DNA from: Escherichia coli
Lineage (GTDB): Bacteria; Pseudomonadota; Gammaproteobacteria; Enterobacterales; Enterobacteriaceae
Assembly: GCF_003334815.1 (NCBI RefSeq)
Contig: NZ_QOWO01000003.1
Length of the DNA: 64,000 nt
Direction: 5' to 3' (one strand)
Shown here: positions 48,680 through 50,093 of the stretch, piece after piece
How the letters are laid out: each line of letters begins with the position of its first letter
Numbering within the stretch: the stretch's first letter is position 1
Notes under the pieces: generated by a model
Databases searched by the model: none
Seen by the model: the letters and a program-made list of their open reading frames with translations, nothing else
What the model was told of the DNA's origin: nothing
Made by a program: the position numbers and the translations under genes

Positions 48680-49717
48680 ATGCACGGTAATTCTGAAATG
48701 CAAAAAATCAACCAAACCAGCGCAATGCCTGAAAAAACTGACGTTCACTGGAGTGGTCGGTTTAGCGTTGCACCAATGCTCGACTGGACGGACAGACATT
48801 GCCGCTATTTCTTGCGTCTGCTTTCCCGCAATACGTTGCTGTATACCGAAATGGTGACCACAGGGGCGATTATTCACGGTAAAGGTGATTATCTGGCGTA
48901 CAGTGAAGAAGAACATCCGGTAGCGTTGCAACTGGGCGGTAGCGATCCGGCGGCGCTGGCGCAGTGTGCAAAGCTGGCAGAAGCGCGCGGATATGATGAG
49001 ATCAACCTGAATGTCGGCTGCCCGTCTGACCGGGTGCAGAACGGCATGTTTGGTGCGTGTCTGATGGGTAATGCGCAGCTGGTTGCCGACTGCGTGAAAG
49101 CGATGCGCGATGTGGTGTCGATTCCGGTGACGGTGAAAACGCGTATTGGCATCGACGACCAGGACAGCTATGAATTTCTCTGCGATTTCATCAATACCGT
49201 TTCCGGCAAAGGCGAGTGTGAGATGTTCATCATCCACGCACGTAAAGCCTGGCTTTCGGGGTTAAGCCCGAAAGAAAACCGTGAAATCCCGCCGCTCGAT
49301 TATCCGCGTGTGTATCAACTGAAGCGTGACTTTCCGCATCTGACAATGTCGATTAACGGTGGTATCAAGTCGCTGGAAGAGGCCAAAGCACACCTGCAAC
49401 ATATGGATGGCGTGATGGTCGGGCGCGAGGCGTATCAGAATCCGGGTATTCTGGCGGCGGTAGACCGGGAGATCTTTGGTTCCTCGGATACCGATGCCGA
49501 TCCGGTGGCGGTAGTGCGCGCCATGTATCCGTACATTGAGCGTGAACTCAGCCAGGGGACGTATCTCGGCCATATTACCCGGCATATGTTGGGCTTGTTC
49601 CAGGGTATTCCTGGCGCGCGGCAGTGGCGGCGTTATTTAAGTGAAAATGCCCATAAAGCGGGTGCAGACATTAATGTGCTGGAACACGCGCTCAAACTGG
49701 TGGCGGATAAGCGTTAA
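48680..49717 (+). CDS. dusA: tRNA-dihydrouridine synthase A (about 345 aa; start codon uncertain)
   Basis: ORF 48674..49717; Dus-family TIM-barrel flavoenzyme (...[17 protein letters not shown]...); candidate starts at 48674, 48680 and 48698. Confidence 0.9.
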
Positions 49718-49781
49718 CTTTTCACCAAAAAGTAGTCAAATTCACCACGCCCTGCGCACCGTCGCGGGGCGTTTTGCTGTT

Positions 49782-49815
49782 AAATCAATAGATTATTTTT
49801 GGCATGATTCTTGTA
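49782..49815 (+). promoter_or_regulatory. Sigma54 promoter of pspG with an upstream IHF-like site
   Basis: TGGCATGATTCTTGTA (49800-49815) fits the -24/-12 consensus TGGCAC-N5-TTGCW; ATCAATAGATTAT (49782-49794) fits the IHF consensus WATCAANNNNTTR; located about 35 bp upstream of the pspG ATG. Confidence 0.75.
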
Positions 49816-49850
49816 ATGCCAGCAAGAGATTTCATATTTGGGAGAGCATC

Positions 49851-50093
49851 ATGCTGGAACTACTTTTTGTGATTGGCTTTTTTGTCATGCTGATGGTCAC
49901 CGGCGTTTCGTTGCTGGGCATTATCGCCGCGCTGGTTGTGGCGACGGCCATTATGTTCCTCGGCGGTATGCTGGCATTGATGATTAAGTTGCTGCCGTGG
50001 TTACTACTGGCGATTGCGGTGGTGTGGGTTATTAAGGCGATTAAAGCACCAAAAGTGCCGAAATATCAGCGTTATGACCGCTGGCGTTACTAA
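49851..50093 (+). CDS. pspG: Phage shock protein G (80 aa)
   Basis: ATG at 49851 gives MLELLFVIGFFVMLMVTGVSLLGIIAALVVATAIMFLGGMLALMIKLLPWLL..., a small two-TM protein; the longer track ORF 49641..50093 is not the real gene. Confidence 0.9.
   Translation: MLELLFVIGFFVMLMVTGVSLLGIIAALVVATAIMFLGGMLALMIKLLPWLLLAIAVVWVIKAIKAPKVPKYQRYDRWRY

Follow-up and report, generated by a model that had tools for sequence, protein, structure and literature searches.

The systems closest to the locus analyzed here are two Escherichia coli promoters that are activated by PspF, namely the pspA promoter, in the pspF-pspA intergenic region, and the promoter of pspG (yjbO, b4050) itself. The pspG promoter and its dependence on PspF and IHF have been in print since 2004 (Lloyd et al., J Biol Chem 279:55707), and we rely on that work as it is presented in later papers (PMC3709507, PMC4591121, PMC3041696), including the IHF dependence of pspG expression, for which it is cited in PMC3709507. 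In the same later literature, as far as it covers pspG, binding by sigma-54 and control by PspF, IHF and PspA are described (PMC3709507, PMC4591121). The two promoters differ in their upstream activator sequences (UAS) and in the strength of their response, with two UAS and an approximately 100-fold induction for pspA and one UAS and an approximately 20-fold induction for pspG (PMC3709507). Mehta 2013 and its supplement give just 'one UAS' for pspG, and no coordinates of it. The Yersinia enterocolitica pspG gene, a third close system, is known from Green & Darwin 2004 (J Bacteriol 186:4910, as cited in PMC9239133).

Genome-wide data are also available for this promoter. In a sigma-54 ChIP-seq study, the site OS40, with the sequence TTGGCATGATTCTTGTA, was assigned to pspG, 25 nt away from the site, and was marked 'C' in the table, which we take to mean previously confirmed (PMC4591121). 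The same study listed pspG among five genes with intergenic sites that were up-regulated on sigma-54 overexpression, and it named PspF as the activator (PMC4591121). In Salmonella, ChIP-chip also picked up the orthologue of pspG (PMC3844500). Fractionation placed the PspG protein in the inner membrane, and in silico it was predicted to have two transmembrane (TM) helices with both termini inside (N-in/C-in; Engl 2009, PMC2763126). Downstream of the gene, PspH was described as a sponge of Spot 42 that depends on Hfq and that may, in addition, be transcribed from a promoter of its own (Melamed 2016, PMC5145812).

Results

The locus is pspG in its K-12 context

The window, by which we mean the whole 64,000-nt (64-kb) stretch of DNA that was analyzed, was 100% identical to E. 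coli K-12 MG1655 over 801 nt around the small open reading frame, and the same 801 nt were found in 5,426 of 5,426 complete E. coli genomes. The identical K-12 sequence is annotated in RefSeq as dusA, pspG and qorA, and the small reading frame is therefore pspG. The sequence, the 17-nt sigma-54 site and the 80-aa protein are all identical to those of the pspG gene of the PspF regulon, so that the locus compared with the literature is the same locus. The window represents an E. coli K-12-type chromosome with the order zur–yjbLM–dusA–pspG–qorA–dnaB. In K-12 itself the order reads zur, a frameshifted DUF2713 gene, dusA, pspG, the convergent qorA, dnaB and alr. An open reading frame directly 5′ of dusA, at 47577-48317 on the + strand, is a part of the DUF2713 gene (the yjbL/yjbM region), which is frameshifted in K-12 according to RefSeq.

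For comparison, 80 related genomes were retrieved using the PspG protein, and they ranged from Escherichia to Yersinia and Brenneria. The dusA gene was found 5′ of pspG in 79 of these 80 genomes, and the remaining locus (L062) was a 547-nt fragment that was too short to tell. In the window, dusA ends with a TAA stop codon at 49715-49717, followed by a 133-nt spacer in front of pspG, and the distance from the stop codon to the -24 element of the pspG promoter is 82 nt. The features of the locus are collected in Table 1.

Table 1. Features of the dusA-pspG-qorA region, with positions given in the window
Feature	Position	Strand	Basis
dusA (tRNA dihydrouridine 20/20a synthase) CDS	48680-49717	+	RefSeq; TIGR00742, 581.6 bits; upstream neighbour of pspG
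Putative PspF enhancer (UAS) of pspG, TTTCACCAAAAAGTAGTCAAATTCACCACGC	49720-49750	+	Conserved non-coding block; matrix match to pspA enhancer region
dusA intrinsic terminator, 10-bp G+C-rich hairpin (49747-49772), then TTTTGCTG	49747-49780	+	Terminator scan, fold, covariation
IHF core site AATCAATAGATTA, perfect WATCAANNNNTTR match, about -43 to -31	49783-49795	+	Consensus scan; conservation
Sigma-54 promoter TTGGCATGATTCTTGTA	49799-49815	+	Sequence; identical 17-mer in ChIP-seq site OS40; conservation
Predicted transcription start (±2 nt), 25 nt 5′ of ATG	49826	+	-24/-12 geometry
Ribosome-binding site GGGAGA, 5-6 nt 5′ of ATG	49840-49845	+	Direct sequence reading
pspG CDS, 80 aa, inner-membrane protein	49851-50093	+	TIGR02975; PF09583; RefSeq WP_000891404.1
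PspH sRNA (b4758), pspG 3′ UTR	50150-50260	+	NC_000913.3 annotation mapped onto the window
Bidirectional terminator hairpin, pspG/PspH (+) and qorA (-)	50229-50251	.	Terminator scan, both strands

The sigma-54 promoter and its start site

The initial annotation of this DNA had given pspG a sigma-54 promoter of its own at 49800-49815, and this location turned out to be exact, as supported by the OS40 site, by gSELEX and by conservation. The sequence TGGCATGATTCTTGTA at this position is on the + strand and occurs nowhere else in the window. When the window was searched with the looser pattern TGGCAY-N5-TTGYW, we found one match compared to 0.44 expected, and at least one match was present in 34 of 100 shuffled sequences. 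A count of this pattern was thus considered and set aside as evidence by itself, since it is not significant in 64 kb, and the case for the promoter is therefore borne by its position, its conservation and the published binding data.

The promoter had also been called a good -24/-12 element. This description holds for the GG at -25/-24 (49801-49802) and for the spacing, which follows TGGCAC-N5-TTGCW, and it is relative at -13/-12 (49813-49814), where the sequence is GT instead of the near-invariant consensus GC. The form TGGCA[CT]-N5-TTGTA was found in 73 of the 80 related genomes, and the TTGTA pentamer was found in 75, two of which had a degenerate -24 hexamer. The pspA promoter likewise has TTGTA at -12 (GT at positions 1526-1527 of the E. 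coli psp locus, L002). The GT dinucleotide thus looks like a trait of the PspF regulon rather than a defect, because it is shared with pspA and conserved among the pspG orthologues. The other five pspG orthologues had TTGAA, TTGGA or TTGCT, and the consensus C at this position was found in only 2 of the 80 genomes. A separate variant was observed in Citrobacter werkmanii NBRC 105721 (L026), where the -24 element, about 51 nt 5′ of pspG, reads TGTCAT and not TGGCAT and has thereby lost one G, with the enhancer, the terminator, the IHF site and the -12 element all intact; it is either a natural promoter-down variant or a sequencing error.

From the -24/-12 geometry, transcription is predicted to start at about position 49826, with the exact nucleotide estimated from the spacing. 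This is 1-4 nt upstream of the 49827-49830 interval proposed in the initial annotation, and it agrees with the 'distance 25' entry for pspG in the ChIP-seq table (PMC4591121). A consensus scan for sigma-70-like promoters on the + strand of 49500-50400 gave none for pspG, and a sigma-70 promoter driving the gene was considered and dropped after that scan. NtrC is not known to regulate pspG. By gSELEX, the reconstituted sigma-54 holoenzyme was shown to bind the dusA-pspG spacer in vitro, and the spacer (49715-49850) was also recovered as an in-vitro target of NtrC (58%; PMC8743547).

The IHF site

An IHF-like site had been proposed at 49782-49794, just 5′ of the promoter. The site is present, and its position required a correction by 2 nt, as the only copy of ATCAATAGATTAT in the window is at 49784-49796. 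The IHF consensus WATCAANNNNTTR had nine matches in the window compared to 3.0 expected, and because it is this common, a match by itself says less than the position of the site and its conservation. Within the spacer, the CAA and TTA columns of the core ranked among the most conserved.

A putative PspF enhancer next to the dusA stop codon

We aligned 160 nt 5′ of the promoter from 74 distinct sequences. Three non-coding elements stood out as conserved in this alignment. Two of them were the -24/-12 element and the core of the IHF site, and the third, a block of 31 nt at 49720-49750, was the only strongly conserved element further upstream. The block spans -106 to -76 and contains an imperfect palindrome, GTCAAATTCAC, at 49735-49745, with its center at about -86. 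A second copy of the TTTCAC repeat is found 20 nt 5′ of this core, at 49720-49725, beside the dusA stop codon. In 73 of 79 genomes the block started 0-4 nt past the dusA stop codon (3 nt in the window), and the distance from the AGTC of the block to the TGGCA of the promoter was 66-67 nt in 70 of 80 genomes.

A weight matrix was built from the block and used to scan both strands of the window and of the E. coli psp locus. The block itself scored 45.6 bits at 49720, a self-match, and the next best position in the window, at 18922, scored 7.8 bits, which was also the background maximum in the 128 kb that were scanned. The top two matches in the psp locus were 19.6 bits (+ strand, position 1420) and 17.5 bits (- strand, position 1440), both in the pspF-pspA intergenic region, which contains the pspA enhancer. 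A simpler comparison was tried and rejected, in which the ungapped 34-mer of the K-12 pspA enhancer was compared with the window; it matched 18 of 34 positions at 49719, and about 190 sites in the window were equal or better. This pairwise identity is not significant, and the case for the enhancer therefore rests on the multi-species matrix. One palindrome accompanied by a TTTCAC half-repeat fits the published UAS counts, which are one for pspG and two for pspA. These results place the putative PspF enhancer in the spacer, abutting the dusA stop codon and outside the coding sequence, with the bases contacted by PspF predicted from the conserved pattern.

An intrinsic terminator between the enhancer and the IHF site

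A terminator scan identified a hairpin at 49747-49772 followed by TTTTG, which is located between the enhancer and the IHF site, with the final 4 nt of the enhancer block forming part of its 5′ arm. The RNA fold had a free energy of -19.1 kcal/mol (z = -2.65). The hairpin and the T tract were retained in about 70 genomes despite differing stem sequences. Over 58 aligned sequences, 97.6% of the cells were paired and seven of the ten base pairs showed compensatory changes. None of 500 shuffles came up to these values, and controls in which the position was slid along the alignment were 37-60% paired. The terminator was absent in the two Brenneria loci (L080 and L082).

The pspG gene and its product

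The reading frame from the ATG at 49851 to the TAA ending at 50093 was confirmed as the small membrane protein gene that had been recognized from the sequence. The 80-aa product matched the NCBIfam equivalog TIGR02975 (PspG) with 90.1 bits, compared to a cut-off of 53.7, over profile positions 1-63 of 64, and it matched Pfam PF09583 over its full length (positions 1-64 of 64; 88.5 bits), in agreement with the RefSeq annotation. The orthologues were 80 aa long in 67 of the 80 genomes. Two TM segments had been proposed for this protein, which matches the published prediction (PMC2763126); our own hydropathy scan gave a single unbroken hydrophobic stretch, above 1.7 over residues ~1-62. The C-terminal tail is basic and rich in K, R and Y. 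Ahead of the ATG the window has GGGAG at 49840-49844, and GGGAG or GGAG was retained in the orthologous leaders.

The 3′ UTR and PspH

The PspH seed, CTGTACCCTAC, at 50195-50205 is a perfect 11-nt complement of nt 1-11 of Spot 42 (spf), and the seed was found 3′ of pspG in 75 of the 80 genomes, all enterobacterial. PspH ends at the terminator that is common to the convergent qorA gene. At its annotated 3′ end, PspH shares 2 nt with the qorA stop codon (50229-50261). The terminator scan gave no terminator-like site on the + strand between the pspG stop codon and the hairpin at 50229-50251, and as no terminator separates PspH from pspG, the sigma-54 transcript should carry PspH. In the literature we found no statement on the effect of Psp induction on the level of PspH. 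When 49500-50400 was compared with Rfam at E ≤ 1, PspH had no match, and the scan returned only two sub-threshold terminator-like matches (ctRNA_p42d, 21 bits compared to a gathering score of 50).

Comparison with pspA and with Yersinia

The pspG promoter resembles the pspA promoter in its activator, PspF, and in the unusual TTGTA at -12. At pspA an IHF-type TAAATCAA is located just 5′ of the TTGGCA (TTGGCAC), and the placement at pspG is similar. Both enhancers have ATTC[GA]C repeats that are 20 nt apart and a central TTAGT or GTAGT (TAGT). In the numbering of this analysis, the core palindrome of pspG is centered at about -86, whereas the repeats of pspA are at about -99 and -119. The surroundings also differ, as the pspA enhancer doubles as the site for pspF autoregulation, whereas the putative pspG enhancer abuts a stop codon and a terminator.

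A Yersinia locus (L077) was like the window in that pspG followed dusA and was preceded by a promoter, TGGCACGTTTCTTGTA, and by an enhancer-like block, TTAGTCAATTTGACCAC. In contrast to the window, the leader from the promoter to the ATG was 206 nt and not 51, and the spacer was 312 nt long. Among the more distant loci, namely L077 (Yersinia vastinensis), L078 (Rahnella) and L080 and L082 (both Brenneria), the leader was extended from about 51 nt to 75-206 nt, and the distance from the stop codon to the promoter stayed at 90-116 nt. In the Brenneria locus L080, a perfect palindrome, TTAGTCGTTTTGACTAA, was found at the position of the enhancer.

Alternative readings of the upstream region

The initial annotation had stated that the activator sites must lie inside the dusA coding sequence, so that dusA codons would double as binding sites for PspF, somewhere in 49600-49717. 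The expectation is understandable, since sigma-54 enhancers are usually found 80-150 nt upstream, and at this locus -110 and beyond would enter dusA. It is also true that the second TTTCAC repeat extends the conserved pattern 20 nt 5′ of the core, and that the absent left half of a pspA-like palindrome would overlap the TAA. The 133-nt spacer nevertheless has room for the enhancer, and the conserved block follows the stop codon in 73 of 79 genomes. The scan for a PspF-type enhancer, which the initial annotation had suggested, gave the block as its sole strong match in the window and nothing within dusA. Further, the last 73 nt of dusA had 1.25 bits at the first codon position, 1.31 at the second and 0.63 at the third, which is an ordinary coding pattern in which wobble positions are not conserved, and no conservation beyond the needs of coding was found there. 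With a single UAS reported for pspG (PMC3709507), we consider an enhancer inside dusA very improbable, and this reading was largely refuted by the computation.

Two further readings concern the transcript and the protein. If dusA and pspG formed an operon, pspG would be expressed mainly by read-through and the sigma-54 motif would be incidental. In favor of this, dusA and pspG share a strand and are separated by a short spacer, and their synteny was kept in each of the 79 loci that extended far enough to include the gene 5′ of pspG. Against this, the structurally conserved intrinsic terminator separates the two genes, which argues against expression of pspG mainly via read-through from dusA; the promoter, the IHF site and the UAS are conserved at a fixed spacing; and both sigma-54 binding and PspF-dependent regulation have been published (PMC3709507, PMC4591121, PMC3844500, PMC8743547), which leaves the operon reading with an extremely small probability. 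The other reading is that a 150-aa frame starting at a GTG, at 49641-50093, encodes an N-terminally extended PspG that overlaps the 3′ end of dusA. This frame is present as a mechanical call and is open in this strain from the GTG, and the initial annotation had judged it to be an artefact, with which we agree. The TIGR02975 profile aligned solely to residues 72-134 of the 150-aa translation. The upstream extension of the pspG frame reaches 70 codons in the window and in one near-identical Escherichia genome only, and the remaining 79 genomes, other E. coli among them, had a stop codon within 4-47 codons upstream of the pspG ATG. In addition, the dusA-pspG spacers of the related genomes differ in length by non-multiples of three, the extension runs through the terminator, the IHF site and the promoter, and the ATG at 49851 has a good ribosome-binding site ahead of it. 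On the partial profile match and the closed frame in relatives, the 150-aa frame was rejected as a real gene, and its chance of being the true product is next to nil.

Discussion

We conclude that the region is almost certainly the transcription unit of E. coli pspG, a gene whose dependence on sigma-54 and an enhancer is known and which is served by IHF and by a putative PspF enhancer in the dusA-pspG spacer. Direct observations of this analysis are the sequence elements together with their conservation and constant spacing, the likeness to the pspA enhancer, the membership in the PspG family and the non-coding nature of the upstream extension, and they can be combined with the published regulation into the following model. 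Sigma-54 RNA polymerase would form a closed complex on TTGGCATGATTCTTGTA (49799-49815). PspF would occupy the enhancer at 49720-49750, centered about 86-91 nt 5′ of the start, and IHF bound at 49783-49795 would bend the intervening DNA so that PspF could reach the polymerase. Hydrolysis of ATP by PspF would then open the promoter, and transcription would proceed from about 49826. Without membrane stress PspA keeps PspF inactive, and stress from a secretin (pIV) or from loss of the proton-motive force frees PspF from PspA. The transcript would give the 80-aa PspG, to be inserted in the inner membrane as an effector, and would continue through the 3′ UTR, in which the sRNA PspH is found, as far as the terminator at 50229-50251. 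Within the looped DNA, the hairpin of dusA at 49747-49772 would insulate pspG from read-through.

The arrangement also raises an idea that we regard as unlikely, namely that there could be mutual effects between the activation of pspG and the transcription and termination of dusA. It comes from the location of the terminator in the PspF-IHF-sigma-54 loop, from the 4 nt that it has in common with the enhancer and from the conserved TTTCAC half-repeat that touches the dusA stop codon. A polymerase arriving from dusA could, for example, displace PspF from its only UAS, or dusA termination could be assisted by PspF or IHF serving as a roadblock when bound to the DNA. No report of such coupling was found in the Psp literature, in which the original papers from 2004 are represented by the papers citing them.

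The pspG gene and its sigma-54 promoter are already known biology and not a new observation, and so is the regulation by PspF, IHF and PspA; they have been textbook material of the Psp envelope-stress response since 2004, and the analysis should be given little weight as a discovery. Relative to the literature that cites Lloyd 2004, it would add to the record of pspG the predicted placement of the enhancer at 49720-49750 and of the dusA terminator in the putative loop. The use of the check is that a real sigma-54 promoter was recognisable from sequence alone, that a plausible but wrong placement of the enhancer in dusA was corrected, and that the mechanical 150-aa call should give way to the 80-aa pspG gene.
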